In this document: in pieces, positions 428 to 61,455 of the stretch | Layout of the letters: each line of letters starts with the position of its first letter | Numbering within the stretch: position 1 is the first letter of the stretch | Source: an uncultured Flavobacteriaceae bacterium | Lineage (GTDB): Bacteria; Bacteroidota; Bacteroidia; Flavobacteriales; Flavobacteriaceae | Assembly: GCA_963716625.1 (NCBI GenBank) | Contig: CAVQTP010000008.1 | Span: forward strand, 73,812-137,811 | Length of the DNA stretch: 64,000 bases | Direction: 5' to 3' | Translations under genes and position numbers: made by a program | The notes under the pieces: generated by a model | Databases searched by the model: none | Told to the model about the DNA's origin: nothing | What the model saw: only the letters and a program-made list of their open reading frames with translations

Positions 428-445
428 ACGCTTTCGCGAAAGCGT
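428..445. repeat. Iterated palindrome, perfect 16-mer extended to 18 bp (intergenic)
   Basis: ACGCTTTCGCGAAAGCGT. Confidence 0.95.
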
Positions 446-481
446 AAAAACTCTTGCTAACATATTTCAAATAACAGGATC

Positions 482-1099
482 ATGGCAGAATTCATTAAGC
501 TTTACGAAGAAAATCCAAACCCAAAAGAACTTAAAAGAATTGTAAAAATTCTTAAAGATGGAGGACTTATTATTTATCCCAGTGATACGGTGTATGCGCT
601 AGGGTGTGATATCACAAATACGAAAGCGCTTGAGCGTGTGGCTCAAATTAAAGGGGTCAAATTAGAAAAAGCCAATTTTTCTTTTGTCTGCGAGGATTTG
701 AGCAATTTGTCAGATTATGTAAGACAAATAGACTCTAAAACTTTTAAAATTTTAAAGCGAGCACTTCCAGGCCCCTACACATTTATATTACCTAGTAATA
801 GTAATTTGCCACCTGTTTTTAAGAAGAAAAAAGAAGTAGGCATACGCGTTCCAGATAATGCCATCACCAAGGCCATTGTTCACGCATTAGGAAATCCCAT
901 TGTATCGACATCTATCTATGATGAAGATGAAGTCATTGAGTACACTACTGATCCAGAGCTTATTTTTGAAAAATGGCAATCTCGTGTAGATGTGGTGGTA
1001 GATGGTGGTTACGGGGATAATATTCCGTCTACTGTAATAGATCTTACGGGAGATGAACCTATTTTGGTACGGGAAGGTAAAGGAAGTCCTGAAATATAA
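482..1099 (+). CDS. Sua5/YciO/YrdC family (L-threonylcarbamoyladenylate synthase-like) protein
   Basis: IIYPSDTVYALGC, LPGPYTFIL, GIRVPD and STS motifs. Confidence 0.9.
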   Translation: MAEFIKLYEENPNPKELKRIVKILKDGGLIIYPSDTVYALGCDITNTKALERVAQIKGVKLEKANFSFVCEDLSNLSDYVRQIDSKTFKILKRALPGPYTFILPSNSNLPPVFKKKKEVGIRVPDNAITKAIVHALGNPIVSTSIYDEDEVIEYTTDPELIFEKWQSRVDVVVDGGYGDNIPSTVIDLTGDEPILVREGKGSPEI

Positions 1100-1124
1100 A
1101 GCACTCAATAGTTTTCTTACTATC

Positions 1125-1153
1125 AAATCTCGAGGTTTACTTCGAGATTTTTT
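1125..1153 (+). terminator. Intrinsic terminator
   Basis: AAATCTCGAG-gtttac-TTCGAGATTT followed by a T-run, 25 nt after the stop codon. Confidence 0.75.
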
Positions 1154-1273
1154 ATAGGTATTAGTTCAAAAATATATAAAAGTTGTTGTAACTAAATAAC
1201 CTCTCCGGGTAGGAGAGGCTCTTAACTAAATCTAATAAAGATTTGGGGATTTACTATGCAATTGCTTAGTAAC

Positions 1274-2035
1274 TTATGAACCGACTAAGGCTGTATTTAA
1301 TGGAGTTTCAATAAAGTTATTACGATGGTATGCTAGTTCATCAAGATTTAAGTCGTTAATTTCCTTAGGAAAGATTCCTTCAAAATTGTTGTCAAACAAG
1401 CTTAAACTTTTTAAATTAGGTAGTGATACTATACATCTTGGTATTTCTCCTGTAAAAGAATTACTACTTAATTGTAATTCTTTTAAATTTTTTAAACTTG
1501 AGATGGAATCTGGTATCTCACCTTCTAAAAAATTACCATAAACACTTAATCTCTTAAGGTTTGTGAGACTACTAAGATCGTTAGGTAGCTCACCACTTAA
1601 TTCATTAAAAAATACATCAAAATATTCCAAATTTGTCATTTGAGATATCTCGTTAGGTATAGATCCTTTTATTTTGTTTATAGACAGATTTAAAATTTTA
1701 AGAGCTTTAAGTTCAGCAACGCTAGATGGAATTTCACCCACTAGATTATTGTTATGAAGATTTAAAACTCTTAAGAATTTTAAATCCTTTAAACTGGTAG
1801 GTAATGTACCATTCAGATTATTATTTTTTAAAGTAATAGACATTACATGATTACTTATGATAGTTACACCTTTCCATGCTGTAGGTTCTGCAGTTAGATC
1901 CCAGGTTTGGGTCCAAGCATCACCGTTAGTATAAGCATATAAGTCTAGAAGCGCTTGCTTTTCACTTTCTGGTATAGAAGCAAATGACAGTGAAGTGAGA
2001 AGAGATAATATCAAAGTAAATGTAATTGTTTTCAT
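1274..2035 (-). CDS. Secreted leucine-rich repeat protein (plant-type LRR)
   Basis: Repeats of LxxLxLxxNxLxGxIPxxI; N-cap EKQALLDLY...W...WKGV; signal peptide from ATG 2035 (MKTITFTLILSLL). The track start at 2125 is probably too far upstream. Confidence 0.85.
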   Translation of the reverse strand: MKTITFTLILSLLTSLSFASIPESEKQALLDLYAYTNGDAWTQTWDLTAEPTAWKGVTIISNHVMSITLKNNNLNGTLPTSLKDLKFLRVLNLHNNNLVGEIPSSVAELKALKILNLSINKIKGSIPNEISQMTNLEYFDVFFNELSGELPNDLSSLTNLKRLSVYGNFLEGEIPDSISSLKNLKELQLSSNSFTGEIPRCIVSLPNLKSLSLFDNNFEGIFPKEINDLNLDELAYHRNNFIETPLNTALVGS

Positions 2036-3236: not shown

Positions 3237-4232
3237 TTAGAGAAGCTCCTTGTACGTGCGCTTTCGCGAAATAAAATACCGCCATACTACAGAAAAAATG
3301 CGTGCATATCTTGAGCTATCTTTTAAGGATTTTCTATCTCCTATAAAACTAGGTATGTGTGTGTAAAAACTAAAGTGCGCTCTCAGAATAGCTAGAAAGT
3401 GTTTCGGCTTACCTGCTGCCAAAAATTTTACACCTGCCAAGCCATCTAAGACAAGTCTAGCCAATATTATAAAAAATGCATGTGTCCCTTTTACGTTTTT
3501 CATAATATTGAAAAGAGAATTTCTGAAGTTGTAAAACGTTTTTTGCGCATTGGCAGAGGCGAGGGTAGCGCCACCTAGGTGTAGAACTTCACTAGCTCCG
3601 CATGCTATAATTTTTTTCCCGCGGTTTTTGATACGCCAGCATAGATCGATTTCCTCTTGATGGGCAAAATACCGTTCATCCAGTCCGCCCACTTGCCAAA
3701 AATCTATAGATCTTACAAATAAACAAGCACCACTTGCCCATTGTACCTCGAGGGTGTCATTATATTGTCCTAGATCTTCCTCACAGGTCTCAAAAACCCT
3801 ACCTCTACAAAAAGGATAGCCAAAACGGTCTAAAAATCCCCCAGCCGCTCCCGCATATTCAAAGTGTGTAGGTCGTTTGTAATCTTTAATTTTGGGTTGC
3901 GCCGCGCCTACAAATGAGTTCTCAAAAAGTGCTACCATAGGTGATAACCAGCCTTCCGTAACTTGGACATCACTATTAAGTAGAACGTAAATGTCACTTT
4001 CTATGGCTGTAAGTCCATCATTGTACCCCTTAGCGTAGCCGCCATTCTCTGTATTCTCTATAATAGTGACGGAAGGAAAGTTAGTACGTATATAGCTTAC
4101 CGAGTCATCAGTACTTGCATTATCTATTACAAATACATCTGCCAGGGGTGCGCTATACCTCATGACCGTACTCAAAAACTGTTCGAGCAGGTTTTTTCCA
4201 TTCCAATTTAGTATGACGATCGCAATTTTCAC
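3237..4232 (-). CDS. Glycosyltransferase family 2
   Basis: IAIVILNWNG, DNASTD, LLNSD, SGAC and EEIDLCWR motifs. Confidence 0.9.
   Translation of the reverse strand: MKIAIVILNWNGKNLLEQFLSTVMRYSAPLADVFVIDNASTDDSVSYIRTNFPSVTIIENTENGGYAKGYNDGLTAIESDIYVLLNSDVQVTEGWLSPMVALFENSFVGAAQPKIKDYKRPTHFEYAGAAGGFLDRFGYPFCRGRVFETCEEDLGQYNDTLEVQWASGACLFVRSIDFWQVGGLDERYFAHQEEIDLCWRIKNRGKKIIACGASEVLHLGGATLASANAQKTFYNFRNSLFNIMKNVKGTHAFFIILARLVLDGLAGVKFLAAGKPKHFLAILRAHFSFYTHIPSFIGDRKSLKDSSRYARIFSVVWRYFISRKRTYKELL
3259..3271. repeat. Partial palindrome copy (13/16) in the GT2 3' end
   Basis: CGCTTTCGCGAAA; read as ISRKR on the minus strand. Confidence 0.75.
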
Positions 4233-6212: not shown

Positions 6213-6232
6213 TACGCTTTCGCGAAAGCGTA
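6213..6232. repeat. Iterated palindrome extended to 20 bp (between lptD and ridA)
   Basis: TACGCTTTCGCGAAAGCGTA. Confidence 0.95.
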
Positions 6233-9256: not shown

Positions 9257-10378
9257 ATGCGTAAAAGAATTGATTTTAATAGTTATTTAACCGTTTTGCT
9301 TCTCGTAGGGAGTTTGTTTTGTAACGCTTTCGCGAAAGCGCAGAGCACCCCCTCAAAAAAATTTAAAATCGTACTCGATGCGGGTCATGGAGGTAAAGAC
9401 AGTGGGAATCGAGGTAATGGCTACTATGAGAAAAATATTGCACTTAATGTTGTTTTAGCCATAGGAGAAGAGCTAGCAAAACTCCCCGATGTAGAGGTTA
9501 TCTACACTCGTAAAAAAGATGTTTTCTTAGAATTATGGGAGCGAGCTGATATAGCAAATAATTCAAATGCAGACCTTTTTATAAGTGTACATTGCAATTC
9601 ACATTCATCTCAAGCGAAGGGAACAGAGACTTTTGTATTGGGAATAGGTGGCAATGCAAAAAATATGGCCATTGCAAAAAAAGAGAACTCCGTTATATTA
9701 CTAGAGGAAAATTATGAAAAACGTTATGCTGGCTTTGACCCAAATATGCCAGAGACAACCATAGGTTTAGAACTTATGCAAGAAGAATATCTGGATCAAA
9801 GTATCAATCTTGCAAGTTTTATTGAGAACGAATTTACAAGTACCGTTAAAAGGTCAAGTAGAGGTGTAAAACAGGCGATTTTCTGGGTGTTACACAGATC
9901 TGTCATGCCTAGTGTGCTCATTGAAACGGGCTTTTTGACTAATGATGAAGAGGGTAAATTTCTTAATTCAAAAAATGGACAAGAGAAGATGGCACAGGCT
10001 ATTTCTAAGGCAGTTGTTAACTACAAGGAAAGTATACAAGCAATCGAAAGTGTAGCAATTATTGATAAACCTGAAATGACTTCTAATGAACCTGTCATTG
10101 TGGAAACTCCTATGATAATGTCTGGGATAGAGTTTAAGGTGCAAGTTGCAGCTAGTAAATTGAAGCTAGAAACACAACCTTATAATTTTAAACAACTCAA
10201 TAATGTTACGCGTATGCTGGATAATGGGTTCTATAAATATTATTATGAGTCAACACATGATTATAATCTAGCTCGAAAATTTCTTGAAGAAGCAAAAAGT
10301 GCTGGGTTTGAACAGGCATTTATAGTTTCATTTAATGAGCAAAATATAAAGGTACCTCTTAGTCAAGTGTTAAATTAG
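9257..10378 (+). CDS. N-acetylmuramoyl-L-alanine amidase (Amidase_3)
   Basis: VLDAGHGGKD, EKNIAL, FISVHCN, PSVLIETGFLTN. Confidence 0.93.
   Translation: MRKRIDFNSYLTVLLLVGSLFCNAFAKAQSTPSKKFKIVLDAGHGGKDSGNRGNGYYEKNIALNVVLAIGEELAKLPDVEVIYTRKKDVFLELWERADIANNSNADLFISVHCNSHSSQAKGTETFVLGIGGNAKNMAIAKKENSVILLEENYEKRYAGFDPNMPETTIGLELMQEEYLDQSINLASFIENEFTSTVKRSSRGVKQAIFWVLHRSVMPSVLIETGFLTNDEEGKFLNSKNGQEKMAQAISKAVVNYKESIQAIESVAIIDKPEMTSNEPVIVETPMIMSGIEFKVQVAASKLKLETQPYNFKQLNNVTRMLDNGFYKYYYESTHDYNLARKFLEEAKSAGFEQAFIVSFNEQNIKVPLSQVLN
9325..9340. repeat. Iterated palindrome in the amidase signal peptide
   Basis: CGCTTTCGCGAAAGCG, read as N-AFAKA-Q. Confidence 0.95.
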
Positions 10379-11412: not shown

Positions 11413-12762
11413 ATGCAATACATACCTAACATTTTATTCCTCATTGCGTTAGCAGTGGGAGGTGGTTTTTTTATAAAAAACATTAAGAAATTATCTCGTA
11501 ATATCAATCTCGGAAAAGATGTTGACCGCTCAGATAATAAACCACAACGCTGGCGCAATATGGCAAAAATTGCCTTAGGTCAATACAAAATGGTAAAACG
11601 TCCAGTATCTGGAATTTTACATGTTGTTGTTTACATAGGTTTTATCATTATCAATATAGAAGTCCTTGAAATAATTATTGATGGCCTTTTTGGTACGCAC
11701 AGAATTTTTAGCTTTCTCGGCGGCACTTACGATTTCCTAATCGCAAGTTTTGAAATATTAGCCTTTTTAGTATTTGTAGCTGTTGTTATTTTTTGGCTTC
11801 GACGTAATGCTATACGAATCCAGCGTTTTTTAAATCCAGAGATGAAAGGATGGCCAAAGATGGATGCCAACCTCATTCTTTATTTCGAAATGGTGCTGAT
11901 GGGACTATTTTTAGTAATGAACGCTGCAGATTTACAACTTCAATTACTAGGCGCAGATCATTATGCTTCTGGAGATGGAACCATCACAGGTTCATTCCCT
12001 ATTAGTGGATATATCACACCTCTTTTTGATGGGATGTCAACTTCCGCTCTTATTATTTTAGAGAGAGTTGCTTGGTGGTTACACATTCTTGGAATTCTAG
12101 TGTTCTTAAATTACTTATACTATTCTAAGCATCTACATATATTACTTGCTTTTCCTAATACATGGTATGCAAAACTTAAACCTCAAGGAGAATTTAATAA
12201 TCTCGAAGCGGTGACAGATGAGGTAATGCTTATGATGGACCCAAACGCAGATCCATTTGCAGCACCTACTGAAAATGTAGAGGGTGCAGGGGAGCCAGAT
12301 AAATTTGGAGCCAGCGACGTGATGGATCTTAATTGGGTACAACTAATGAACTCATACAGTTGTACAGAATGTGGACGTTGTACTAGTGAATGTCCTGCAA
12401 ATCAAACTGGAAAAAAGTTGAGTCCTCGTAAGATTATGATGGACACTAGAGATCGACTAGAGGAAGTAGGAAAAAATTTAGATGCTAATAATGGGAATTT
12501 TAAACCAGATGGCAAGCAATTGCTTGATGATTATATTACAAAAGAGGAGCTTTGGGCATGTACTACATGTAACGCTTGTGTAGAAGCCTGTCCTATTGGA
12601 ATTGATCCCCTTAGTATTATTATGGATATGCGCCGCTATATGGTGATGGAGGAGAGTAGTGCTCCTACAGATTTGAATAACGCCATGACGAATATAGAGA
12701 ATAATGGTGCTCCATGGCCGTTCAATCAACTAGATAGAGGAAATTGGATACATGAAGGGTAA
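11413..12762 (+). CDS. Membrane-bound Fe-S oxidoreductase, N-terminal half (FadF/HdrD-like)
   Basis: Multiple TMs; CTECGRCTSECP and CTTCNACVEACP 4Fe-4S motifs. Confidence 0.88.
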   Translation: MQYIPNILFLIALAVGGGFFIKNIKKLSRNINLGKDVDRSDNKPQRWRNMAKIALGQYKMVKRPVSGILHVVVYIGFIIINIEVLEIIIDGLFGTHRIFSFLGGTYDFLIASFEILAFLVFVAVVIFWLRRNAIRIQRFLNPEMKGWPKMDANLILYFEMVLMGLFLVMNAADLQLQLLGADHYASGDGTITGSFPISGYITPLFDGMSTSALIILERVAWWLHILGILVFLNYLYYSKHLHILLAFPNTWYAKLKPQGEFNNLEAVTDEVMLMMDPNADPFAAPTENVEGAGEPDKFGASDVMDLNWVQLMNSYSCTECGRCTSECPANQTGKKLSPRKIMMDTRDRLEEVGKNLDANNGNFKPDGKQLLDDYITKEELWACTTCNACVEACPIGIDPLSIIMDMRRYMVMEESSAPTDLNNAMTNIENNGAPWPFNQLDRGNWIHEG

Positions 12763-13096
12763 CATTGTTTTTATAGTTGCGTTTTTATGTTTTTTCGCTT
12801 TCGCGAAAGCGCAAGTATCCACACAAGATTACCGTATAGATAGTATACAATTTAAAATGTATACGCGTATATATGTAGGTTCACAACTTCAACTAGATAG
12901 TGTCATAGTTAAAAAGATTTTTTGCGATTGGTGTTCTGAGTCACAATTAGATATTTTACGCGAGGAGGCCATGCGACAATCCATGATGGAGAGGTATAAT
13001 CCAAAGTATAAAAAACCTGGACAACATAGATTAGCACTATATGTACGTTTTAGTAAAGAAGATTTTAAAAAATTAAATAGCACAGATGAATACTGA
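12752..13096 (+). CDS. Hypothetical secreted protein (CxxC)
   Basis: 114 aa; signal peptide ending AFAKA-Q; FCDWC; overlaps its neighbours by 11 nt. Confidence 0.7.
   Translation: MKGNIVFIVAFLCFFAFAKAQVSTQDYRIDSIQFKMYTRIYVGSQLQLDSVIVKKIFCDWCSESQLDILREEAMRQSMMERYNPKYKKPGQHRLALYVRFSKEDFKKLNSTDEY
12796..12811. repeat. Iterated palindrome in a signal peptide
   Basis: CGCTTTCGCGAAAGCG, read as F-AFAKA-Q. Confidence 0.95.
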
Positions 13097-15116: not shown

Positions 15117-15132
15117 CGCTTTCGCGAAAGCG
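15117..15132. repeat. Iterated palindrome (intergenic)
   Basis: CGCTTTCGCGAAAGCG followed by TA. Confidence 0.95.
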
Positions 15133-18159: not shown

Positions 18160-18174
18160 CGCTTTCGCGAAAGC
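18160..18174. repeat. Iterated palindrome 15/16 (intergenic)
   Basis: CGCTTTCGCGAAAGCt. Confidence 0.9.
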
Positions 18175-19905: not shown

Positions 19906-22801
19906 ATGATGAAAAAAAAGCTGCTTGCCTTAGATAATGAACTAGAAGGTACTCTACACTTTGATGATTTACATAAAACAATATATGCTACAGATGCATC
20001 TGTATATCGTAAAATTCCATTGGCAGTAGCATTTCCAAGTTCTGTAGACGATATTAAGAAATTGGTCATCTTTGCTAGTTCGCATAAAACTTCTCTCATA
20101 CCACGTACAGCAGGAACTTCCTTAGCGGGACAGTGTGTAGGTGATGGTATTGTAGTAGATGTATCAAAGCATTTTACTAAGATTCTTAAATTTGACAAGC
20201 ATAAAGCACAAGTTACAGTGCAGCCAGGAGTGATAAGAGATGAGTTAAATGCTTATCTTAAACCTCATGGGCTATTCTTTGGACCCAATACCTCTACGGC
20301 AAATCGCTGTATGATTGGCGGTATGGTAGGTAATAATTCTTCTGGAACTACTAGCATTCAGTATGGAGTAACGAGAGATAAAGTGATTCGTTTAAAAACA
20401 ATTTTGTCTGACGGTAGTGAAGCAATCTTTGAGCCTCAAGAAGATAACCGCTTTCGCGAAAAATTAAAACTCACAAACCTAGAGGGACATATTTATAACG
20501 TAATCAATGATGTTTTAGAGAATGAGACCTCTCGAGATACTATTCTTAGTAAATTTCCGAAACCAGAAATTCATAGACGAAACACAGGCTATGCTTTAGA
20601 TGCATTAGTATCAACAACTCCTTTCCAAAAAAACGGTCCATCTTTTAATATGTGTAAGTTGCTATCTGGAAGTGAAGGTACACTAGCATTTACAACAGAA
20701 ATCACTTTACAGCTAGATCCGCTCCCACCTAAATATAGTGTGATGGTCGCAGCACATTTTCACACGCTCAATAAATGTTTAAAAGCTGTAGTCCCTGCCA
20801 TGAAACATAAATTGTACACCTGTGAAATGATGGATAAAGTAATTCTTGATTGTACAAAAAATAATAGGGAGCAGCTCAAGAATCGTTTTTTTATTGAAGG
20901 AGATCCAGCCGCTGTGTTGATGTTAGAATTATGTGATGCATCCATAGAAGGAGCTCGAGAACAAGCACAAGAACTTATTGTAACTTTACTAAGTGAGGAT
21001 GTAGGTTATGCATATCCTATTCTAGAAGGATTAGAAATCGATCAGGCAATGGAACTTCGTAAAGCTGGGCTTGGTCTTTTAGGTAATCTAGTTGGTGATC
21101 CAAAAGCGGTTGCTTGTATTGAAGATACAGCAGTAGCTATAGAAGATCTTGCTGGGTATATAGAAGAATTTACAGCAATCATGGATCGTTATGGTCAAAA
21201 AGCAGTGTATTATGCGCACGCAGGAGCTGGAGAAATACATTTAAGACCTATTCTTAATTTAAAAAAAGAAGAGGATGTAGTGCTTTTTAGAAAAATTACC
21301 ACAGAAGTAGCTTCATTGGTCAAGAAGTACAGAGGTTCTATGAGTGGGGAACATGGCGATGGTATTGTACGAGCAGAGTTTATTGAGAGGATGGTGGGAA
21401 AAGAGAATTATGATATCATGCAGCAGATTAAAACTGCTTTTGATCCACAAAATATTTTTAATCCAGGTAAGATTATCAATCCACTGCCAATGGATACGAA
21501 TTTACGCTATGAGGTAAATCGTAAAGAACCCATGGTTGATACATTACTTAATTTTGACGACAATAAAGGGATACTGCGCTTAGCAGAAAAGTGTAATGGG
21601 AGCGGAGATTGTCGTAAACTGCCTAGTGCGGGAGGTGTGATGTGCCCTAAGTTATCGAGCCACTCTTGATGAAAAAGATACCACAAGAGCAAGAGCAAAT
21701 TCTCTACGTGAATTTTTAACCAACTCTCAAAAGGAAAACAAATACAATCATAAAGAACTTAAAGAAGTTTTTGACTTATGCTTGAGTTGTAAAGCCTGTG
21801 CTAGTGAGTGTCCAAGTAATGTAGATGTCGCTACGCTTAAAGCAGAGTTTGAATACCAATACCAAAAATCGAATGGGGCCAGTATTAGAACAAAACTATT
21901 TGCTCATACCACAAGAGTCAATAAAATAGGAGCCAAAGCGCCAAGTCTCTATAATTATTTGCTCAGACATTCAGGAACTATCACAAAAAGGATTTTGAAT
22001 ATTGCCCCAAATCGGAGCTTACCGCCACTTGATGTTTTCAAAAGTTTGGTAACAGAAAATAATTGTAACCCAACTATTAAACCCGTAATCCTCTATATAG
22101 ATGAGTTCTCAGAATATCTGGATGGGTCTATTGCAAATGATGCATTGGCTTTGTTAGAACAGCTTCATTATAAAGTCACTATTTTAAAAAGTTTAGAAAG
22201 CGGTCGCTCTTATATTTCAAAAGGTTTTCTTAAAGAAGCAAAACAATTAGCAAATAAAAATATTGGTATTATTAACTCCTTATCAGATAGTAGTGCTGCA
22301 ATTGTTGGTATTGAGCCTTCAGCAATATTAACCTTTAGAGATGAGTATCTGCGTTTAGCAGATGATTTGGAAGGAGCAAAGGCTATTTCTAAAAGATCCT
22401 TCCTCATTGAAGAATTTTTAAATAATGAAATAGCGTTAGGAAATATCAAGTCAGAGCAATTTTCCGCGCAAGCAAAAAAAATAAAAATTCACGCACATTG
22501 TCATCAAAAGGCGTTATCGTCTGTCTCTCCAACTTTTAAAATTCTCAATTTACCAGTCAATTTCACACCGACCATTATTCCATCGGGTTGTTGCGGTATG
22601 GCTGGAAGTTTTGGCTATGAAAAAGAACATTATGAAATCAGTATGAAGGTAGGGGAGCAAACACTCTTTCCAGCAATTCGTAAGGCAGATCCTAACACGA
22701 TAATTGTTGCAAATGGCACCAGTTGTCGTCATCAAATTAAAGATGGTACCCATATAACAGCATTACATCCCGTTACTGTGCTTAAAGAAGCACTTTTGTA
22801 A
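19906..22801 (+). pseudogene. FAD-binding/(Fe-S) oxidoreductase (YdiJ/GlcD-GlcF-like), split by a +1 frameshift at 21649-21650
   Basis: YATDASVY, GTSLAGQ, SGEHGDG. Removing one A from CCT-A-AGT restores MCPSYRAT.DEKDTTRARAN...CLSCKACASECP in frame with the 21782-22801 ORF. Real lesion or sequencing error. Confidence 0.85.
20449..20461. repeat. Partial palindrome copy (13/16) in coding sequence
   Basis: CGCTTTCGCGAAA, read as RFRE. Confidence 0.75.
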
Positions 22802-22893: not shown

Positions 22894-23958
22894 ATGGCTG
22901 GAAATACCTACGGAACAGTATTCAAACTTACCACTTACGGAGAATCTCATGGGAAAGCCATCGGCGGTATTATAGATGGTTGCCCTTCTGGACTAGAAAT
23001 TGATTTTGAAGCAATACAGCGTGATTTAGACCGCCGTAAGCCCGGACAGTCTAAGATTGTTACCCAACGCAAAGAACCCGATACGGTAGATTTTTATTCT
23101 GGTATTTTTGAAGGAAAAACTACGGGAACACCTATAGGATTTCAGATCGTAAATACGAATCAGAAATCTAAGGATTATAGCCACATTAAAGATACGTATA
23201 GACCTAGTCACGCAGATTATACCTACGATAAGAAGTATGGTAATCGCGATTACCGTGGTGGTGGACGCTCTTCTGCGAGAGAAACCGCAAGCAGGGTAGT
23301 AGCTGGCGCTATCGCAAAGCAATTTTTAAAAGATATTAAATTTTATGCTTATACGAGTGCCGTGGGAGATCTAGTGATGGAAAAGTCATACCAAGAGGTA
23401 GACTTTTCTGAGATAGAAAAGAACGATGTGAGGTGTGCAGATCCCGCTTTCGCGAAAGCGTGTGAACAAAAAATAAAACAGATAAAGAAAGAAGGTGATA
23501 CCATAGGTGGAGTTATTACGTGTGTAATTCAAAATGTACCCGTAGGTCTTGGAGAACCTGTTTTCGATAAATTGCATGCAGAACTAGGCAAAGCGATGCT
23601 GTCTATTAATGCCGTGAAAGGTTTTGAATATGGAAGTGGGTTTGCTGGAGCACAAATGAGAGGGAGTCATCACAATGATCATTTTAATACAGATGGTACC
23701 ACCAAAACAAATTTGAGTGGTGGTGTACAAGGTGGTATATCCAACGGAATGGATATTTACTTTAAGGTTGCATTTAAACCTGTGGCTACAGTGATGCAAA
23801 AGCAACAAACTATAAACGCTGCAGGTGAAGCTGTAGAGATGCAAGGAAAAGGACGTCACGACCCTTGTGTAGTGCCTCGAGCGGTTCCAATTGTAGAAGC
23901 TATGGCAGCACTCGTCATAGCAGATTTTGTACTTCGAGACAAAACAGCTAGATTGTAG
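22894..23958 (+). CDS. aroC: Chorismate synthase
   Basis: [38 protein letters not shown]; start at ATG 22894 (MAGNTYG). Confidence 0.97.
23445..23460. repeat. Iterated palindrome inside aroC
   Basis: CGCTTTCGCGAAAGCG, read as P-AFAKA-C. Confidence 0.95.
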
Positions 23959-29417: not shown

Positions 29418-29437
29418 TACGCTTTCGCGAAAGCGTA
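29418..29437. repeat. Iterated palindrome extended to 20 bp (intergenic)
   Basis: TACGCTTTCGCGAAAGCGTA. Confidence 0.95.
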
Positions 29438-35799: not shown

Positions 35800-35863
35800 A
35801 GTTCGCTTTCGCGAAAAATGTTTAAACCTATTTACTTTGAATAATATTTTGCGAAAGCGAACT
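35800..35863. repeat. Split palindrome: two part-copies forming a long inverted repeat
   Basis: AGTTCGCTTTCGC (35800-12), 38-nt spacer, GCGAAAGCGAACT (35851-63). Confidence 0.85.
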
Positions 35864-40505: not shown

Positions 40506-41846
40506 TTATAAAAGCCCCCTAGCCTTAACTTCTAGATATTTATTGATGGTATTTATCGTAAGATCTTCTGGTTTTGTAAGTATGGTTTGTATGCCATTTT
40601 TTTCTAGTGTTGCTACCATTACTTTTTTATCATAATTAGATTTTTGTGCAATAGTTTTATGATATACTTCAGGAAGTGTACTTGCCTTTTTATCTATGAG
40701 GCTTTCAAGTTCTGTATTTTGAAAAAAGATTACCACGAGTACATGCTTTCGCGAAAGCGCTTTTAAATAAGGAAGTTGCCTTTCTAGCGCAGATATATGT
40801 TCAAAATTAGTGTATAAAAGCAATAGACTACGCTGGGTAATTTTTCGTTTTACTTGGTTATACAATAGACCAAAATCACTATCTAAAAACTGTGTATTAA
40901 TGTTATATAAAACCTCAAGAATGGTTTGTAAATGTGTTTTTTTACTACTCGCCGGTAGATGATTGAGTATGGTATTTGCAAAGGTGAGCATCCCAACCTT
41001 ATCCTTTTTTTTGAGGGCAATATTGGAAAAAGCCAGCGTGCTATTTATGGCATAATCTAGCAGTGATAGCCCTTTAAACGGCATTTTCATCACTCGACTA
41101 GCATCTATTAGTGCATACACAGGTTGGGACTTTTCATCTTGGAATTGATTTACCATCAAGCTAGCCCGCTTTGCAGTTGCTTTCCAGTTTATAGTACGAG
41201 CATCATCTCCTATCACATAATCTTTGATCTGCTCAAACTCCATCGTATGACCAATACGCCGTATTTTTTTCATGCCCTGTAAGGTGAGTCTATTATCAAG
41301 CGCTAGAAAAGCATACCTTTTCATCTGTATGAATGATGGATACACTTTTACCATTTGATCTTTTTCAAAACGATAGCGTCTTTTTACCAGTGCAATCTTG
41401 GTATTGACATACAGATTGAGATGCCCAAAGGTATATTCACCACGCTCCCTAGGTCTCAAGTAATAAGAAAAATTTTTAGAATCTTTTGCCTCAATATGTA
41501 GCACTTTTGAGAAATCTCGCTTTTGAAATTGTACGGGAATTTCATCAATAATAGCTACTTTAATTTTAAACGGATATTTATTTTCAATCTGAATAATTAA
41601 TTCATTTGCATCACTATTAGAAAACTTCTCTGGCAATGTACGTACTGCTTTAATTTTTCCGCTTGCGCGAAAAAGTACTAAGGCATCAACGAAAATGAGC
41701 ACTACAAAAGCAAGGAGTATTACATTGGTGATGGCGAATAAACTATTAAAGAAATAAGAAAGTATATAGCATACGCCAATGATACCCAAGCAATAAAATA
41801 ATCGCTCATGCACAAAAAAGCCCTTAATGAATCTAATTATAGCCAA
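40506..41846 (-). CDS. DUF58 (vWA-related) membrane protein
   Basis: RGEY.FG, EFEQIKDY..GDD.R.INWKATA, vWA-like IDASR.M. Confidence 0.9.
   Translation of the reverse strand: MAIIRFIKGFFVHERLFYCLGIIGVCYILSYFFNSLFAITNVILLAFVVLIFVDALVLFRASGKIKAVRTLPEKFSNSDANELIIQIENKYPFKIKVAIIDEIPVQFQKRDFSKVLHIEAKDSKNFSYYLRPRERGEYTFGHLNLYVNTKIALVKRRYRFEKDQMVKVYPSFIQMKRYAFLALDNRLTLQGMKKIRRIGHTMEFEQIKDYVIGDDARTINWKATAKRASLMVNQFQDEKSQPVYALIDASRVMKMPFKGLSLLDYAINSTLAFSNIALKKKDKVGMLTFANTILNHLPASSKKTHLQTILEVLYNINTQFLDSDFGLLYNQVKRKITQRSLLLLYTNFEHISALERQLPYLKALSRKHVLVVIFFQNTELESLIDKKASTLPEVYHKTIAQKSNYDKKVMVATLEKNGIQTILTKPEDLTINTINKYLEVKARGLL
40745..40759. repeat. Iterated palindrome 15/16 in coding sequence
   Basis: GCTTTCGCGAAAGCG; read as A-LSRK-H on the minus strand. 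Confidence 0.9.
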
Positions 41847-42920: not shown

Positions 42921-44137
42921 TAGTTCAAATTTTTAAAATCTTCAATTCGTGTATTAAGTTGTAGTAGTTCCTCTTGACTTACTGTTTTTTTGTCACGCAA
43001 AGCAACAATAGAATTAATAAGCAATCTAGTATCCTCCATAGTATTCTCACTTTTTGCAGCTAAGTTTAAAATAAATTCCTCATTTATTTTTGCAGTATGA
43101 AGCGCATACGTACTTCGTATGTATTCTAGAAAATGATTTATTTGATGGGACACAACGCTTCTATGATCTTGTCTGTCAAGATACATTCCCGCAATGGTTT
43201 TTGTAAATGCTAAGGTTTGATTAGGCAGAGGATCAATAACGGGTATGGCTCGTTGTTTCCTACGGCCTTCAAAAATGACCCAAATCAATGTTCCAATGAG
43301 AAGCATATAATAGGCCCAGCGCAAGTAGCGATTATTTAAAAATACGTAAAGCGGACTTATGTATTGTGTTTTTCCATTTTTATAATGATTATCCCAAAAG
43401 ATGGTTTGATTTTTAGGTAAATAAGATAAGGCGTCTTGTGTGTAGGTGTAATTATTCTCGCGTAGCATAAAATAGTTTGTGAAGGTGCTAGGCATTAGGT
43501 GAATGAAAATCGCTCCCTTACCAAAAGATTGTTTTATAAAATTTACTTCTGGGTAGTGTACAGCAACCGTATCATTATCTTTAGAAAAACTAAACTCCCC
43601 TAGTACCTTAGTCTCTAAGGTGTCAACCTCAGTAAAATAGCCAGAGAGTGTTTCTATATCTAAGTAGTACGGAGGAGAACGCTCGAGCTGGGGATTCACA
43701 AGATTTACTAAAGGTTTTCGCTCAAAGTTATTGTAGTCATAAAATACTTCTGTTTCTAAGTGTAAAGTATCAAGAATTGTGCTCCCTATTCCTCTAGCTG
43801 CAATAAAGAGGTTATTACCCTCTGACACCCAGCTGAGCAACTTTTTAGCTTCGGCTTCATCAAAATTGATATACTCATTTACAAAAAAATATGTTCCCCG
43901 TTGATCACTGCTATCTGATAGAAACTCATAAGGGGGGAGACGCACTTCTTTCATATGAGAAACACCACGACTTTCTTTCAAGGTTTCATACAATACAAAT
44001 GTGCCAAATGGTATTTTATCTGATTTAGAATAGCTTGAATACCAGTTTATGGGTTCTTTTTTACCAGACTCCATATATATGATGAGCGCAATGGATAATA
44101 ACAAGAACCCAGCAATTACCTTAAATTTAGAACTCAT
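42920..44137 (-). CDS. DUF4350 domain membrane protein
   Basis: N-terminal TM, DKIPFGT, WV..GN.LFIA, C-terminal TM plus RRKQRAIP; position in the MoxR cluster. Confidence 0.75.
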   Translation of the reverse strand: MSSKFKVIAGFLLLSIALIIYMESGKKEPINWYSSYSKSDKIPFGTFVLYETLKESRGVSHMKEVRLPPYEFLSDSSDQRGTYFFVNEYINFDEAEAKKLLSWVSEGNNLFIAARGIGSTILDTLHLETEVFYDYNNFERKPLVNLVNPQLERSPPYYLDIETLSGYFTEVDTLETKVLGEFSFSKDNDTVAVHYPEVNFIKQSFGKGAIFIHLMPSTFTNYFMLRENNYTYTQDALSYLPKNQTIFWDNHYKNGKTQYISPLYVFLNNRYLRWAYYMLLIGTLIWVIFEGRRKQRAIPVIDPLPNQTLAFTKTIAGMYLDRQDHRSVVSHQINHFLEYIRSTYALHTAKINEEFILNLAAKSENTMEDTRLLINSIVALRDKKTVSQEELLQLNTRIEDFKNLN

Positions 44138-44931
44138 ATTGAATTGTTTAAGGTTTTAAATGCCAATTCCGCTTTCGCGAAAGCGGTCACATCTACTTCA
44201 AAATTTCCGTACCAAATGTAGTCGTATAGAGCGGTTACTTTACTAAATTGTGTTTGTGTCGTAAGATTCTTGATCTCATTGATGTAGTCATGGTTTGTCT
44301 TTTGCACTTCCCAGTGAATAAGATCTTTACTACTCATTTTTTGAAGCACTAAAAGATAGTAGTAACGTACGGCAATACGATAGTTTTCATTACTTATAGC
44401 AGTATCTAGAAGTTGCTGTAAGTCTGGTCTCTGAATTAATGCTTCGTCATCAGAAAGAAATGTTTCTGGAGCCTTAATTTTTTCCATGAGTAGATTACCG
44501 CTGTCCATTTTAAAAAACAGCCAAACAATGAGTGCCACGACTCCCGCTACTAGGAGATATGGCAACAACTTTACTAGAATTGCCCAGATGCCCACAGCCT
44601 CATCTCCGTCTAGTAGCCAGTGGATAAAGCTGTGGTAAAGATCTGTTAATTTCTGCTTGAGACGTGTCCACCAATTATCATCAGGTAAAGCTTCTTTGTA
44701 ATTAAAATCTTCGGCAGCTTGATAGGCTTCAATACTATTTTGGTCAAGAGGCACCTTAGTAATTTCACTGTCGTCGTACTTCAAAAATTGGCGTGGATTT
44801 TTATACGCTTTACTTAAAGTGTCCTTCTCAGAAATAACTCGCGCTATACTATCTGTATTTTGAGGCGCCGTGCTTCCTTTCGCGTAAAGCGTATTAATAA
44901 AGAGGAGTACGACGAAAAGGATTTTACACAT
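44134..44931 (-). CDS. DUF4129 domain membrane protein
   Basis: YRIAVRYYYL, KTNHDY, YDYIWYG. Confidence 0.8.
   Translation of the reverse strand: MCKILFVVLLFINTLYAKGSTAPQNTDSIARVISEKDTLSKAYKNPRQFLKYDDSEITKVPLDQNSIEAYQAAEDFNYKEALPDDNWWTRLKQKLTDLYHSFIHWLLDGDEAVGIWAILVKLLPYLLVAGVVALIVWLFFKMDSGNLLMEKIKAPETFLSDDEALIQRPDLQQLLDTAISNENYRIAVRYYYLLVLQKMSSKDLIHWEVQKTNHDYINEIKNLTTQTQFSKVTALYDYIWYGNFEVDVTAFAKAELAFKTLNNSI
44169..44186. repeat. Iterated palindrome extended to 18 bp in coding sequence
   Basis: CCGCTTTCGCGAAAGCGG, read as T-AFAKA-E. Confidence 0.95.
44877..44891. repeat. Degenerate palindrome copy with a 1-nt insertion, at the DUF4129 signal-peptide end
   Basis: CTTTCGCG-T-AAAGCG; minus strand reads TLYAKG. 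Confidence 0.5.
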
Positions 44932-49160: not shown

Positions 49161-49182
49161 ATATGCTTTCGCGAAAGCATAT
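49161..49182. repeat. Variant palindrome with symmetric flank changes (22-bp perfect palindrome)
   Basis: ATATGCTTTCGCGAAAGCATAT. Confidence 0.93.
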
Positions 49183-50948: not shown

Positions 50949-52736
50949 TTATAAGTCAAGATCAAAAGTTCTTCTAAGGGTAGCGAGCGCAGGATTTTGC
51001 TCGAGTAGTTTGTCATATTTTTCTTGAGCAGTATATGCGTATTTGCGTTGTACTTCTTCATTAACGGTGATATGCAGGGTAATATCGTAATTTTGTAATT
51101 TACGTTTAAGGAATTCTAGAAGAGGTCCTTGAGCACGTTCGACTTCCACTTTCATTGTTTCATTTGGAAATTCTAGTTGTATACTAGTTCCATTTAGAGT
51201 TGGCTGGTCTGCTTCTAAATTTGAAGCAATGATTTTTTCACCTTTTAGTATCAACTTTGAAACATATTCACTCCATGCTGCCTGCATTGCAATTTCAGTA
51301 AATGGTTCCGAAGGAAGATTTTCTACATCTACTTTTTTATTTGCTTTTTTTTCTTGTAGTTCTTTTTTCTTTTGTAATCCTTTAAGGGAGAGACCAGAAA
51401 CTCTGTCTTTTCTTACAGTAAGTGTAGGAACAGCGGGTGTAATAGGAGAAGGTTGGGGACTAACTGGATTATTTTTAATAGCTTCTTGACTTATATTAAC
51501 AAAGTGATCTTCATTACTTGAAGCGTTATCTTGAGTACCATTTATAACGGAATCTTTTTCAGATGTAGAGTATTCTTTTGCTAATGAAAGATCTACAGCA
51601 TGAGAAGATGCAATTTTAGAATCTTCAATCTTATAATAAGAGGGTGGAATTAAGAAAGGTTTATTGTTTTTTTTTTCTCCATCAAAAGTGATAGAGGCCA
51701 GCTGCATTAATGATAGTTCTACTAATAATCGTTGATTTCTACTTGCTCTATATTTTAGATCACAAGAGTTTGCAATTTCAATAGCCTCCATAAGAAATGC
51801 CATATCTGTTTGCTTTGATTGCTCGTAATATTTCTTTTTTGTGGTATCTCCCACTTCTAAAAGATGTATGGTGGGTGGATTTTTACACACCATTAAATCT
51901 CTGAAGTGTGAAGCGAGGCCTGCTATAAAATGATGACCATCAAAACCACGAGAAAGGACTTCATTAAATTTCACTAACAGCTGAGGAATATCATTTGCTA
52001 GAATTAAATCTACACATTGAAAATAGGTATCGTAATCTAATACATTTAAATTTTCTGTTACCGCTTTTCGCGAAAGCGTTTTTCCACTAAAACTTACCAC
52101 TCTATCAAAAATTGATAATGCATCACGCATCGCACCATCTGCTTTTTGAGCGATAATGTGTAGTGCTTCCTCATCTGCATCAATTCCTTCTTCGGCAGCA
52201 ATTTGAACAAGATGCTTACGGGCGTCTGTTACCGTGATTCTTTTAAAATCAAAGATCTGACACCGCGATAATATTGTAGGTATAATTTTATGCTTCTCTG
52301 TGGTGGCAAGTATAAAAATTGCGTGCTTAGGAGGCTCTTCTAACGTTTTAAGAAAAGCATTAAAAGCTGAAGATGACAGCATATGAACTTCATCTATTAT
52401 ATAAACCTTATATTTTCCTACTTGTGGAGGTATGCGTACTTGATCAATCAAGCTACGTATATCATCGACAGAATTATTTGAGGCTGCGTCTAACTCGAAT
52501 ACATTAAAAGCAAAATCCTCATCTGGACTGGTATGTTCATCTGTATTAATTTGCTTTGCTAATATACGGGCGCAACTTGTTTTTCCTACTCCTCTAGGAC
52601 CGCAAAAGAGCAACGCTTGTGCCAGGTGATTATGGGCAATTGCATTTTCAAGTGTATTTGTAATAGCCTGCTGCCCTACAACATCTTTAAATGTAGTAGG
52701 TCGGTATTTACGTGCAGATACTATAAATGGTTCCAT
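50949..52736 (-). CDS. dnaX: DNA polymerase III gamma/tau subunit
   Basis: ARKYRP, GPRGVGKT, ELDAASNNSV, IIDEVHML, SRC, GAMRDALS. Confidence 0.96.
   Translation of the reverse strand: MEPFIVSARKYRPTTFKDVVGQQAITNTLENAIAHNHLAQALLFCGPRGVGKTSCARILAKQINTDEHTSPDEDFAFNVFELDAASNNSVDDIRSLIDQVRIPPQVGKYKVYIIDEVHMLSSSAFNAFLKTLEEPPKHAIFILATTEKHKIIPTILSRCQIFDFKRITVTDARKHLVQIAAEEGIDADEEALHIIAQKADGAMRDALSIFDRVVSFSGKTLSRKAVTENLNVLDYDTYFQCVDLILANDIPQLLVKFNEVLSRGFDGHHFIAGLASHFRDLMVCKNPPTIHLLEVGDTTKKKYYEQSKQTDMAFLMEAIEIANSCDLKYRASRNQRLLVELSLMQLASITFDGEKKNNKPFLIPPSYYKIEDSKIASSHAVDLSLAKEYSTSEKDSVINGTQDNASSNEDHFVNISQEAIKNNPVSPQPSPITPAVPTLTVRKDRVSGLSLKGLQKKKELQEKKANKKVDVENLPSEPFTEIAMQAAWSEYVSKLILKGEKIIASNLEADQPTLNGTSIQLEFPNETMKVEVERAQGPLLEFLKRKLQNYDITLHITVNEEVQRKYAYTAQEKYDKLLEQNPALATLRRTFDLDL
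51667..51676 (-). promoter_or_regulatory. A10 run in dnaX; candidate slippage/frameshift site generating gamma
   Basis: GGA GAA AAA AAA AAC AAT AAA at codons 353-359; both alternative frames stop within 8 codons. Confidence 0.7.
52062..52078. repeat. Palindrome copy with a 1-nt insertion inside dnaX
   Basis: CGCTTTTCGCGAAAGCG; minus strand reads T-LSRK-A. Confidence 0.85.
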
Positions 52737-55131: not shown

Positions 55132-55147
55132 CGCTTTCGCGAAAGCG
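55132..55147. repeat. Iterated palindrome between convergent genes
   Basis: CGCTTTCGCGAAAGCG followed by TA. Confidence 0.95.
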
Positions 55148-57655: not shown

Positions 57656-57673
57656 ACGCTTTCGCGAAAGCGT
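57656..57673. repeat. Iterated palindrome (18 bp) between divergent pepT and pyrD
   Basis: ACGCTTTCGCGAAAGCGT. Confidence 0.95.
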
Positions 57674-58838: not shown

Positions 58839-59000
58839 ATGCGCAATTCTCATAAAATAATTTTTGCTTCAATATTAGTTATGTTATTTTCTTTAAAACC
58901 TGAGGTTGCAAGCTTTATACCGCAATGGCTAAAGTTAGCCGTAGCTGGAATTCTTTTAATTTTAGGCTTGTTTTTAATGTGGAAGGAAAGGCAGTGGTAG
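58839..59000 (+). CDS. 53-aa small two-TM membrane protein
   Basis: Manual translation MRNSHKIIFASILVMLFSLKPEVASFIPQWLKLAVAGILLILGLFLMWKERQW; fills the pyrD-LysE gap. Confidence 0.6.
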   Translation: MRNSHKIIFASILVMLFSLKPEVASFIPQWLKLAVAGILLILGLFLMWKERQW

Positions 59001-59097
59001 CAATAGTGTATTTTAAAACTTATATCAAAGATGTATTGTTTTGAATTTTATTTAATATTTATAAAATCTGAACAATTAATACTGATTAACTAAAATT

Positions 59098-59709
59098 TTG
59101 ACAGAATCCATTTTAGCCTTTTTAGCGGCGACTGCCCTTTTAGCCCTTTCTCCAGGACCAGATAACATTTATGTGTTGACGCAAAGTATCGTAAATGGAA
59201 GTAAATCTGGGCTTGCCACCACTGCAGGATTAATATCTGGATGTATTGTACATACCACCTTGGTTGCTTTTGGGATTTCTGCGATAATCGCAGCATCACC
59301 AAAGTTATTTTTGGCAATCAAAATTGCAGGAGCTGCCTATCTTTTATACATAGCCTATAAAGTATATCGTGCAGATGCGCAGATTAATTTAACAGAAGGT
59401 GCTCCAAAAAAAACATACTTAGCTCTTTTTAAGCAAGGAGTCCTAATGAATATTTTAAACCCTAAGGTAACCATTTTTTTTCTAGCATTTTTTCCAGGTT
59501 TCTTGTGGGATCCAGAGGGTAATACAGTATATCAATTTTATATTTTGGGACTAGTATTTATGTTAGAGTCCTTCTTAATATTTGGCGGAATAGCCTTGGT
59601 AGCAGGTAAAATAGCTCCTGTATTAAAAAAAAGTGATACTGCAGGAATTATTTTAAAATGGTTGCAGTTTTTTGTTTTCATAGGGATCGCTATTTTTATA
59701 TTGATTTAG
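59098..59709 (+). CDS. LysE/RhtB family translocator
   Basis: SPGPDNIYV, GAAYLLY, NILNPKV.IFFLAFFPGF. Confidence 0.92.
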   Translation: MTESILAFLAATALLALSPGPDNIYVLTQSIVNGSKSGLATTAGLISGCIVHTTLVAFGISAIIAASPKLFLAIKIAGAAYLLYIAYKVYRADAQINLTEGAPKKTYLALFKQGVLMNILNPKVTIFFLAFFPGFLWDPEGNTVYQFYILGLVFMLESFLIFGGIALVAGKIAPVLKKSDTAGIILKWLQFFVFIGIAIFILI

Positions 59710-61400
59710 ATCTCAAGTTTGTAAACAATTGCTTGCCAAGGCCTCAGTGCAAATTCTTTAAATGTCTTGTCATCAAGAATTTTGTCATTAGAAATCAGCT
59801 TTATTTTTCTATTATACGAGATATCTAATGGTAATGAAAACCGTACCGTATCGTCAGAAAAGTTCAACAAAATCAAAAATCGTTGATCTTCTTGTTGGCG
59901 TGTATAGGCATATACTTGTTCATGTTCTGGCTTTATAATCGTATATGTCCCATAAACAAGTGCTTTATGTAATTTGCGTAAAGCAACCATGTTTTTAAAG
60001 TATGAAAGTACGGAGTCCTTAGATTTTAATTGTTGAGAGACAGTAATCCCCTTACGATAATCTGAATTAACTTCAATCCACGGATCTGCAACTGAAAAAC
60101 CTGCATTATTAGAAGAGTCCCATTGCATAGGAGTACGTGCATTTTCTCTAGCAGTGTGTTGCTCATTTTTCATAAAAGCGTTGAGATCACCGCCACGGTT
60201 TTTTTCTAATTCATATCTATTAATGGTATTAATATCTCTATAATCTTCAATACCTGAAAACTTGACATTTGTCATTCCAATCTCATCGCCTTGGTAAAAG
60301 TAGGGGGTGCCTCTCATGGTTAGTAAAAAAGTGTGCAAAAGTGTAGCGCTGTTTTTCCAGTGTTCTTGAGAATCATTGCCCCACCTACTTACTGCTCTAG
60401 GAAAGTCATGATTTGCCAGAAATAACGATCCCCATCCATGGTTTGCAAATGCATGGTCCCATTTTGTAAAAATCTCTTTAAATTCAGACAACTTCCATCT
60501 CTCTTCTTTTAGAGTAAAAACCTCTCCAGGAGCACGGTCCAGACTCATTAGGTCAAAATGAAAAAACATATCCATTTCTTTTCGGTCTTCATGCACAAAA
60601 TCTAATGCTTGGTCTAGGGCTATGCCTGGTCCTTCCCCCACAGTAAAAGCGTCATATTTAGATATTACCTCCTTGTTGAGCTCATTGAGATATTCATGTA
60701 CTTTAGGGCCATTTGCATAGTATGCTATAAACTCGTGCGGTTCTTGCGCAAGTATTTCTGGATAGCTAGTATCTTTGCTTATAAACGGAATCACATCCAT
60801 ACGGAAACCGTCTACGCCCTTTTGAAACCAGAAATGCATCATATGATAGATTTCTTGTCTAACTTTTCGGTTTTCCCATTTGAGATCTGGTTGTTTTACT
60901 GAAAAATAATGGAGGTAGTAAGCATTGGTCTGCTCATCATACTGCCAGGCATCCTCATTTACATCAAAATAGCTCCAACGCCTTGGAGGATTGCCATGCT
61001 CTGCGGGCCACCAGTGAAAGTAGTCTCGATACGGATTTTCTCTAGATTTCCTACTCTCTTGAAACCATCGGTGTTCATCACTACAATGATTTACAACTAG
61101 ATCCATCACAAGCTTTAGTCCACGGGCTTTCATACCAGCGAGTAGTTGTTCAAAGTCGGCCATTGTGCCGAATTCTGTCATTATTTTTTGATAATCGCGT
61201 ATATCATAACCGTTGTCGTCATTAGGAGAATCGTAAATAGGGTTGAGCCATATAATATCAACTCCTAAGCTTTGTATATAGTCTAGCTTATCAATAATAC
61301 CCTGTAAATCACCTATACCATTTCCAGTTGTATCGTTAAAAGATCTTGGGTAAATTTGATATACCACTCCTTCTTTCCACCAAGTTTCTTTGAGACTCAT
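59706..61400 (-). CDS. GH13 alpha-glucosidase / oligo-1,6-glucosidase
   Basis: WWKEGVVYQIYPRSF, DNGYDIRDY, DLVVNH, QPDL, GFRMDVI, NHD, RTPMQW. Confidence 0.93.
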   Translation of the reverse strand: MSLKETWWKEGVVYQIYPRSFNDTTGNGIGDLQGIIDKLDYIQSLGVDIIWLNPIYDSPNDDNGYDIRDYQKIMTEFGTMADFEQLLAGMKARGLKLVMDLVVNHCSDEHRWFQESRKSRENPYRDYFHWWPAEHGNPPRRWSYFDVNEDAWQYDEQTNAYYLHYFSVKQPDLKWENRKVRQEIYHMMHFWFQKGVDGFRMDVIPFISKDTSYPEILAQEPHEFIAYYANGPKVHEYLNELNKEVISKYDAFTVGEGPGIALDQALDFVHEDRKEMDMFFHFDLMSLDRAPGEVFTLKEERWKLSEFKEIFTKWDHAFANHGWGSLFLANHDFPRAVSRWGNDSQEHWKNSATLLHTFLLTMRGTPYFYQGDEIGMTNVKFSGIEDYRDINTINRYELEKNRGGDLNAFMKNEQHTARENARTPMQWDSSNNAGFSVADPWIEVNSDYRKGITVSQQLKSKDSVLSYFKNMVALRKLHKALVYGTYTIIKPEHEQVYAYTRQQEDQRFLILLNFSDDTVRFSLPLDISYNRKIKLISNDKILDDKTFKEFALRPWQAIVYKLEI

Positions 61401-61440
61401 TGTAATGTATTTAATGAAAAACGAATTTAGGGATAGATAT

Positions 61441-61455
61441 GCTTTCGCGAAAGCG
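61441..61455. repeat. Iterated palindrome 15/16 between divergent GH13 and pyrR
   Basis: tGCTTTCGCGAAAGCG followed by TA. Confidence 0.9.

Follow-up and report, generated by a model that had tools for sequence, protein, structure and literature searches.

A 14-bp palindrome, GCTTTCGCGAAAGC, recurs every few kilobases in a 64,000-nt stretch of DNA from an uncultured Flavobacteriaceae bacterium (the window) and across the genome that holds it (G000; 2.87 Mb in 8 contigs, 87% complete, with an aroC gene whose best matches are Dokdonia records at 87–94%). We find that this word forms the center of an element of ∼50 bp, in which a 14–16-bp palindromic core is flanked by two 15-base G-poor wings, and that its copies avoid one another within ∼1.5 kb. 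Our preferred explanation, which we put at slightly below an even chance, is that the palindrome is the core of a ∼50-bp two-fold symmetric site, present about every 3 kb, for a lineage-specific homodimer and that it is selected for even coverage. The wings, the exclusion zone, the gap-filling variants, and the phage copies are additions to the original prediction, which was made from the window alone. Coordinates are positions in the window and, the sites being two-fold symmetric, carry no strand.

Results

The 16 exact 14-mers of the original prediction, 11 of them perfect 16-mers, are all present at the places it gave (Table 1), whereas 100 shuffles of the window yielded a mean of 0.17 matches even with two mismatches allowed (largest 2). 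Its six partial copies are also real: those at 3260, 20450, 35805, and 52064 are one-armed copies (sites with two mismatches in which the second arm is degenerate), the one at 35851 is a half-site, and the one at 44877 is a one-base-insertion variant. The proposed division into nine intergenic and seven coding copies did not hold exactly, as we count ten and six, but it lies within the uncertainty of gene starts because the copies at 12797 and 57658 become coding with a longer open reading frame (ORF) start. The forecast of ∼250 copies per Mb is close to the genome-wide count of 705 exact 14-mers in 2.87 Mb (161–278/Mb across all 8 contigs), which establishes a genome-wide cis-element and excludes confinement to one region. 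G000 holds in addition 84 one-mismatch and 138 two-mismatch copies, and 459 of its sites are perfect 16-mers; Markov models of orders 1–6 predict 0.001–0.006 copies of the 14-mer, and the top 12-mers and 14-mers of the genome all derive from the palindrome. An assembly artefact is excluded by independent assemblies that share a copy at the same aroC codons. Rfam returned no match in the window.

By our own gene calls, 347 copies lie in genes and 357 in spacers, which are ∼7-fold denser. Spacer sites show no orientation preference (228 per 1380 tandem, 76 per 402 divergent, and 53 per 316 convergent spacers), and some of them cluster 5–15 bases past stop codons. The genome-wide spread, the variety of contexts, and terminator scoring, by which no copy between positions 1 and 20000 of the window qualifies, support the view that the palindrome is not a terminator, insertion sequence end, or operon operator. 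A trans-acting factor encoded elsewhere, also proposed originally, is in our judgment the likely cause.

Beyond the core the consensus continues G-T-A-A, TA being the commonest flank, and is followed from +4 to +18 by the wing, with frequencies of 0.077 for G, 0.237 for C, and 0.389 for A. The wing ends at +19, where G climbs back to ∼0.15, and both wings together hold ∼2.8 bits of information. Wing G is 0.081 on the leading and 0.071 on the lagging strand (n = 608). In genes the bias appears on both sides and at all three codon positions when compared with motif-free orthologues, and it is also found in G254 (a complete motif-rich genome from another genus), in Dokdonia relatives, and in phages. 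One-armed sites (n = 132) keep either arm, whatever the gene direction, and their armless side is still G-poor (0.094). The left and right flanks do not covary, so that no longer hairpin appears to be selected, and the hairpin of the 16-mer amounts to −4.3 kcal/mol only. The commonest single change is C-to-T at the first C of CGCG (19/84), which is synonymous in the frame encoding AFAKA. A perfect dyad with mirror-image wings, blind to the direction of both transcription and replication, suggests that the DNA is bound in its double-stranded form by a complex with two-fold symmetry.

To describe spacing we used two nulls of 1000 draws each that keep the gene/spacer split. The coefficient of variation of the gaps is 0.67 compared with 1.06 and 0.93 in the nulls, and no draw from either is as low; gaps below 1 kb number 16 (173 and 120 in the nulls) and gaps above 10 kb number 20 (63 and 53). 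Pair density relative to random is 0.11, 0.24, 0.58, and 0.93 in the first four 500-bp bins, reaches 1 at ∼2 kb, and shows no further trend up to 12 kb. The distances between sites have no helical phasing. When copies with up to two mismatches are counted, mean spacing is 3.0 kb. Of the variants with one, two, and three mismatches, 5, 4, and 10%, respectively, have a perfect site less than 500 bp away (25% at random), and those with one or two mismatches carry full wings; four-mismatch words neither avoid perfect sites nor have wings. Among pairs less than 600 bp apart, 12/20 contain a weak member, roughly double what chance would give; this suggests that close neighbors are redundant rather than that they interfere with each other. 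Exclusion, together with the filling of gaps by weak copies, points to a benefit that saturates within ∼1.5 kb.

Highly conserved genes hold 38 copies/Mb compared with ∼195, and their median distance to a site (821 bp) is like that of other genes (720–867 bp). A site lies 166 bp from the midpoint of rpsJ, and all three 16S loci are flanked by sites. Genes without a homologue in the motif-poor relative G143 (2.61 of 2.95 Mb compared, 88%) are more often remote, 14% of them being >3 kb from a site compared with 1–5%. Density is uniform along the G000 contigs and in 17 samples around G254; the terminus was placed by GC skew only, and dif was looked for but not located. In contig C4 of a further genome (G344), the sites listed are about twice as dense at 45–135 kb as at 250–390 kb.

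Copies within genes arise mostly by base substitution. Compared with G143, 125/165 coding sites have the same length, 28 are longer (only 2 of these by +5 or +6 codons), and 12 are shorter. Gaps occur at 27/165 coding sites and in 189/9121 control windows (2.1%), and a minority of copies may stem from insertion. Amino-acid identity to G143 is 32% at the sites and 65% elsewhere, indicating that they fall in variable loops. In an alignment of 80 aroC loci, five codons give way to the motif without any insertion or deletion; the copy recurs at this position in 7/8 Dokdonia-like loci (with a one-armed form in L056), in L072, and in L110. Partial forms at corresponding positions in Dokdonia relatives reveal stepwise gain or loss; in L054 and L055 the counterpart of the site at 20450–20463 is degenerate, and a perfect copy stands elsewhere in the aligned stretch. 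Of 20 ungapped coding sites, 9 have an exact counterpart at that position in G254, and the remaining 11 diverge there by at least 5 bases. AFAKA peptides are encoded by exactly the motif codons in 211/220 cases. Seventeen of these 211 copies lie at the end of hydrophobic N termini, likely signal peptides, where A-K-A could serve as a signal-peptidase site.

The motif was sought in 24 genomes of the same genus, 300 of the family, and 16 of other families. All 24 same-genus genomes contain it (70–906 copies), and none of the 16 from other families does. In the family panel its 10-base core is abundant in four genomes only (G002, G053, G312, and G254; 560–1049 copies); the other 296 have ≤42 and are close to background. 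All 39 genomes from the genus of G053 hold 298–858 copies, and the motif is abundant in one genome of a third genus. A single origin across genera is plausible from gene comparison, since G254 represents the closest other genus by purB. Within the 2.61 Mb of G143 that were compared, 5 exact copies occur. We rejected G143 as a relic lineage, as its motif-bearing ORFs sit in a recently shared P-type ATPase/RND efflux island 85–97% identical to G000. This island (L277–L278 in G143, ∼513–535 kb of contig C5 in G000, with a second ATPase copy on C8) is common to a motif-rich and a motif-free genus, and the motif travels along with it.

Several records stand apart. L056, although labeled Alphaproteobacteria, carries an aroC gene like that of Dokdonia; its sites are mostly one-armed, and its genome holds 39 exact copies; two records labeled Leeuwenhoekiella (L109 and L110) have 5 and 61 copies. 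These labels suggest mixed bins or mislabeling. Outside the window, positions 1–77000 of contig C7 of G000 (GC 39%) look cyanobacterial, with 89 copies of the cyanobacterial highly iterated palindrome HIP1 (GCGATCGC) and none of our palindrome; this piece, the only place in G000 with true HIP1, is probably a chimeric assembly join. The word TTTCCGAAG occurs 11, 7, and 6 times in 21 kb of the Ulvibacter/Patiriisocius loci L125, L121, and L118; it has a codon-like look and may be a short over-represented word.

At least 131 viral stretches contain a match, and we examined the flanks of 80. Among the matches listed, 16 loci from 9 contigs have at least two cores and the rest are single matches, many of them probably due to chance. 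Multi-copy loci include those of a portal/terminase/tape-measure phage that has an integrase (L286, L339, and L319), of a phage with a recombinase (L331), and of one with a Mu portal (L350); L304, L309, and L336–L338 are presumably temperate as well. Temperate-type phages unrelated to one another carry wing-bearing copies, spaced by ∼5–8 kb. Four of ten further phage proteins had no Pfam match, and five in total stayed unassigned. The sibling Nonlabens phages P12024S and P12024L, which have no annotated integrase and a host presumed to be motif-rich, contain no copy in 35.7 kb each. A BLAST search of named phages and plasmids with a 66-base site returned chance matches only, a method that cannot detect a 16-mer.

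Table 1. Copies of the palindrome in the 64,000-nt window
Copy	Position	Context
Perfect 16-mer	429..444	Spacer upstream of TsaC/Sua5 gene
One-armed, 2 mismatches	3260..3273	3' end of glycosyltransferase gene
Perfect 16-mer	6215..6230	Tandem spacer upstream of Rid-family gene
Perfect 16-mer	9325..9340	Amidase gene, AFAKA frame, codons 24–28; likely signal-peptide end
Perfect 16-mer	12796..12811	Spacer; within ORF 12752–13096 if longer start is real
Perfect 16-mer	15117..15132	Tandem spacer
Exact 14-mer	18161..18174	10 bases past stop codon, upstream of bshA
One-armed	20450..20463	FAD-linked oxidase gene
Full ∼50-bp element	23428..23477	Inside aroC; 16-mer at 23445–23460 plus wings
Exact 14-mer	27201..27214	Gene 26655–27506, AFAKA frame
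Perfect 16-mer	29420..29435	Tandem spacer, 11 bases past stop; missing at this place in L052 and L053
One-armed	35805..35818	Spacer; half-site at 35851
Perfect 16-mer	36922..36937	Gene 36836–37738
Exact 14-mer	40745..40758	Gene 40506–41702 (minus strand)
Perfect 16-mer	44170..44185	Near 3' end of gene 44134–44931 (minus strand)
Exact 14-mer	49165..49178	Spacer
One-armed	52064..52077	dnaX
Perfect 16-mer	55132..55147	Convergent spacer
Perfect 16-mer	57657..57672	Divergent pepT/pyrD spacer; inside pepT ORF if longer start is real
Exact 14-mer	61441..61454	Divergent spacer upstream of pyrR

Two further observations concern genes of the window. The FAD-linked oxidase gene at 19909–22801 is split in two, one piece matching the N-terminal and the other the C-terminal part of a single family; further genes of G000 are split in a like manner, which suggests sequencing indels. 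Positions 1274–2035 encode a leucine-rich-repeat protein whose matches to plant-pathogen effector families are far below cut-offs.

Of the four candidate factors named in the original prediction, the methyltransferase and the HUH nuclease found no support, and a DNA-binding protein or an uptake receptor may still be the reader. In family panels run on three motif-rich and two motif-poor genomes, neither ParB, C5 and N4/N6 methylases, and Y1 transposases nor HU/IHF and helix-hairpin-helix (HhH) proteins tracked the motif. The CGCG or TCGCGA methyltransferase is disfavored: the C5 family PF00145 occurs in 2/3 motif-rich genomes but not in the complete G254, its G000 copy sits in a motif-free island, and the N4/N6 family PF01555 is absent from G000 (87% complete; the Dam-type family was not searched). 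An HUH nuclease is disfavored as well, no Y1/HUH transposase being detected in G000 or G254; Y1 matches appear only in G053 and weakly in G002. Each of the five genomes has one ParB and no extra copy, with a near-identical helix-turn-helix region in motif-rich and motif-poor genomes; that of G000 is ordinary and has two parS-like sites on C7. Among the genes obtained by subtraction against G143, 58 are at clean syntenic gains and none of these evidently binds DNA; a 340-kb sample of G254, judged by eye rather than by family scans, gave no convincing candidate either. This blank says little, because part of G000 is missing and the 12% of G143 outside the comparison inflates the list with false candidates; the reader may also be a widespread protein in a modified form.

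Discussion

In the mechanism that we favor, a dimer would read the 14–16-bp core and contact ∼15 more bases to the left and right of it, with a preference for a strand that is poor in G 3' of the core. An occupied site would serve 1–2 kb on either side by spreading, looping, or loading a DNA-handling machine. A second site nearby would add nothing and would decay, a site in a gap would be favored even at the cost of changed amino acids, and integrating phages would fall under the same selection. The kilobase-scale range matches that of Noc, which could cover ∼1–2 kb per site at ∼70 palindromic sites (PMC4331003, in excerpt), and adoption of the motif by integrating phages matches the presence of FtsK-orienting polar sequences (KOPS) in enterobacterial prophages (PMC3603311, in excerpt). 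A bolder proposal, possible but in our view rather doubtful, is that these features amount to an undescribed tiling system: a new protein complex with a two-armed 50-bp footprint that divides the chromosome into ∼3-kb units, rewrites hundreds of proteins, and forces integrating phages to adopt its site, that is, nucleoid or DNA-maintenance machinery without a characterized counterpart.

Several observations weigh against a homodimer site selected for even coverage. Motif-free stretches of 14–20 kb persist in the chromosome, so that any requirement for even coverage is not strict. The wing bias is flat and non-periodic, not as DNA wrapping would give. Known chromosome-organizing palindromes are confined to a region, whereas this one is uniform, at ∼2.4–5.9 copies in each 10 kb of core DNA apart from a single bin of 1.7. 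The three motif-rich and two motif-poor genomes are much alike in their numbers of ParB, HU/IHF, and HhH proteins, and none of the 389 cytoplasmic candidates from the subtraction against G143 stood out by eye. Finally, the patterns of spacing and origin all fit an uptake sequence too.

A DNA uptake sequence, which we consider possible but distinctly less than probable, would be preferred by a flavobacterial competence receptor, and uptake with recombination would spread about one copy per recombining fragment. G000 has an intact DUF5689 lipoprotein, an adjacent gene for a large outer-membrane protein, ComEC, and an HhH protein; in Riemerella, transformation requires proteins that carry these domains (PMC8459023, in excerpt). 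Uptake sequences originate in situ, are rare in newly acquired DNA and in genes under constraint, and have a fairly even spread (PMC7811141, in excerpt), and their spacing in Neisseria matches conversion tracts (PMC2397512, in excerpt). Our motif likewise originates in situ and is rare in both kinds of sequence, and its absence from the two phages of non-integrating type fits. The same machinery is, however, present in the genomes searched whether motif-rich or motif-poor (DUF5689 in 24/24, ComEC in 5/5), three genera share the word in unaltered form, and G143 showed no iterated word of its own, nor did the motif-free loci among 70 screened, apart from the codon-like word of L118 and L121. To our knowledge, known uptake cores are not palindromes and are often paired as inverted terminators; the motif is a perfect palindrome whose close pairs are depleted. 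We found no report of Dokdonia competence in the literature. A two-way Chi-like or repair signal is unlikely. In this reading, a helicase-nuclease or a repair complex would halt at the site, nick it, or load RecA there, the G/T-rich strand 5' of the core would be the single strand handed on, and the site would protect or repair DNA within 1–2 kb. The flat, strand-specific 15-base wing would suit single-strand contact, the spacing of 3–4 kb and range of ∼1.5 kb resemble Chi density and the range of mismatch repair, and an AddA-like gene and a likely AddB gene nearby on C7 (named by sequence motifs) are only 41–42% identical to their G143 orthologues. Chi sites are, however, 5–8 bases long, non-palindromic, and polarized; the motif has no polarity, no shared methylase for strand marking was found, and virulent phages should copy a protective self-mark, yet P12024S and P12024L have none.

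The remaining explanations are far less probable. An origin like that proposed for HIP1, in which a methyltransferase acting on CGCG or TCGCGA and biased repair leave the palindrome as a by-product, would account for the central CGCG and for C-to-T as the commonest change (19/84), but that change is synonymous in the AFAKA frame, and with the motif masked CGCG (0.76) and TCGCGA (0.90) are under-represented. An enzyme reading 4–6 bases cannot specify 14–16 bases plus wings, and the C5 methylase distribution described above argues against it. Equally improbable is a mobile-element footprint (a repetitive extragenic palindrome (REP) with its associated tyrosine transposase (RAYT), or a TA-targeting miniature element) or an RNA hairpin or terminator. 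The TA flank, the excess of gaps at coding sites (27/165 compared with 2.1%), the predominance of longer over shorter sites (28 compared with 12), and the cluster past stop codons would all be expected, but 125/165 sites show no length change, only 2 are at +5 or +6 codons, and stepwise intermediates exist between Dokdonia species. Neither G000 nor G254 has a Y1 transposase, the hairpin is weak, its flanks do not covary, and no copy in the scored part of the window qualifies as a terminator.

If our preferred reading of the palindrome as a homodimer site, or the uptake alternative, is correct, the motif represents, in Bacteroidota, a new chromosome-organizing system or the first uptake sequence that is a palindrome. 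Our literature search returned no description of the motif under Dokdonia or Nonlabens palindromes, repeats, REPINs (REP doublets), or over-represented motifs, most subscription papers being outside its scope; the string TTTCGCGAAA occurs in the literature, but in no paper on these bacteria, and the main texts of RAREFAN and Bertels 2017 contain Dokdonia 0 times, although their supplements could list the 16-mer. The function of HIP1 has been unknown for decades; here the word is unambiguously long and restricted to one clade with close motif-free relatives and cultured marine members, which makes its reader experimentally accessible. The motif also marks phages and islands that have lived in these hosts, and it exposed the foreign 77-kb piece.

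Comparison with known systems

HIP1 is associated with a cognate palindrome methyltransferase and belongs to a different phylum; for our motif no shared methylase was found. The two share hyper-abundance in and between genes, conservation, and the lack of a gene-level role. HIP1 is 8 bp long, 15–300-fold enriched, and reported to have a 10–90-kb periodicity, whereas the motif has 14–16 bp plus wings, is >100,000-fold enriched, and shows short-range exclusion. HIP1 is described as a conserved, hyper-abundant palindrome in and between genes with a proposed function in chromosome structure (PMC5861425, in excerpt). Conservation beyond protein need is seen here for coding copies, and for spacer copies in few alignments only. 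With the DNA uptake sequence of Neisseria and the uptake signal sequence of Pasteurellaceae the motif shares permissive codons, scarcity in new or constrained DNA, fairly even spacing, and weak flanks, but it differs in being a perfect palindrome with mirror wings and no inverted pairs.

The parS/ParB and Noc-binding site (NBS)/Noc systems likewise use 14–16-bp palindromes suited to a dimer, with a kilobase-scale range like Noc spreading; matS/MatP and the SlmA-binding site (SBS)/SlmA are further systems of this type. These have few to ∼70 sites in one region, compared with 700–1000 uniform sites for the motif, which lacks the origin or terminus confinement or exclusion of parS, NBS, and matS and for which no ParB-family reader was found, the lone ordinary ParB having its own two parS-like sites. 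KOPS and Chi also number hundreds of sites per chromosome but, unlike the motif, are short, non-palindromic, and replication-polarized. REPs and REPINs with RAYT are likewise hundreds of short palindromes, and spacers are ∼7-fold enriched for our motif as well, yet half of its copies lie inside genes without insertion, no RAYT accompanies it, and the copies avoid one another rather than pair. Taken together, the motif works like HIP1 or an uptake sequence, yet in the features compared it departs from HIP1, REP/RAYT, parS/NBS, and Chi/KOPS.

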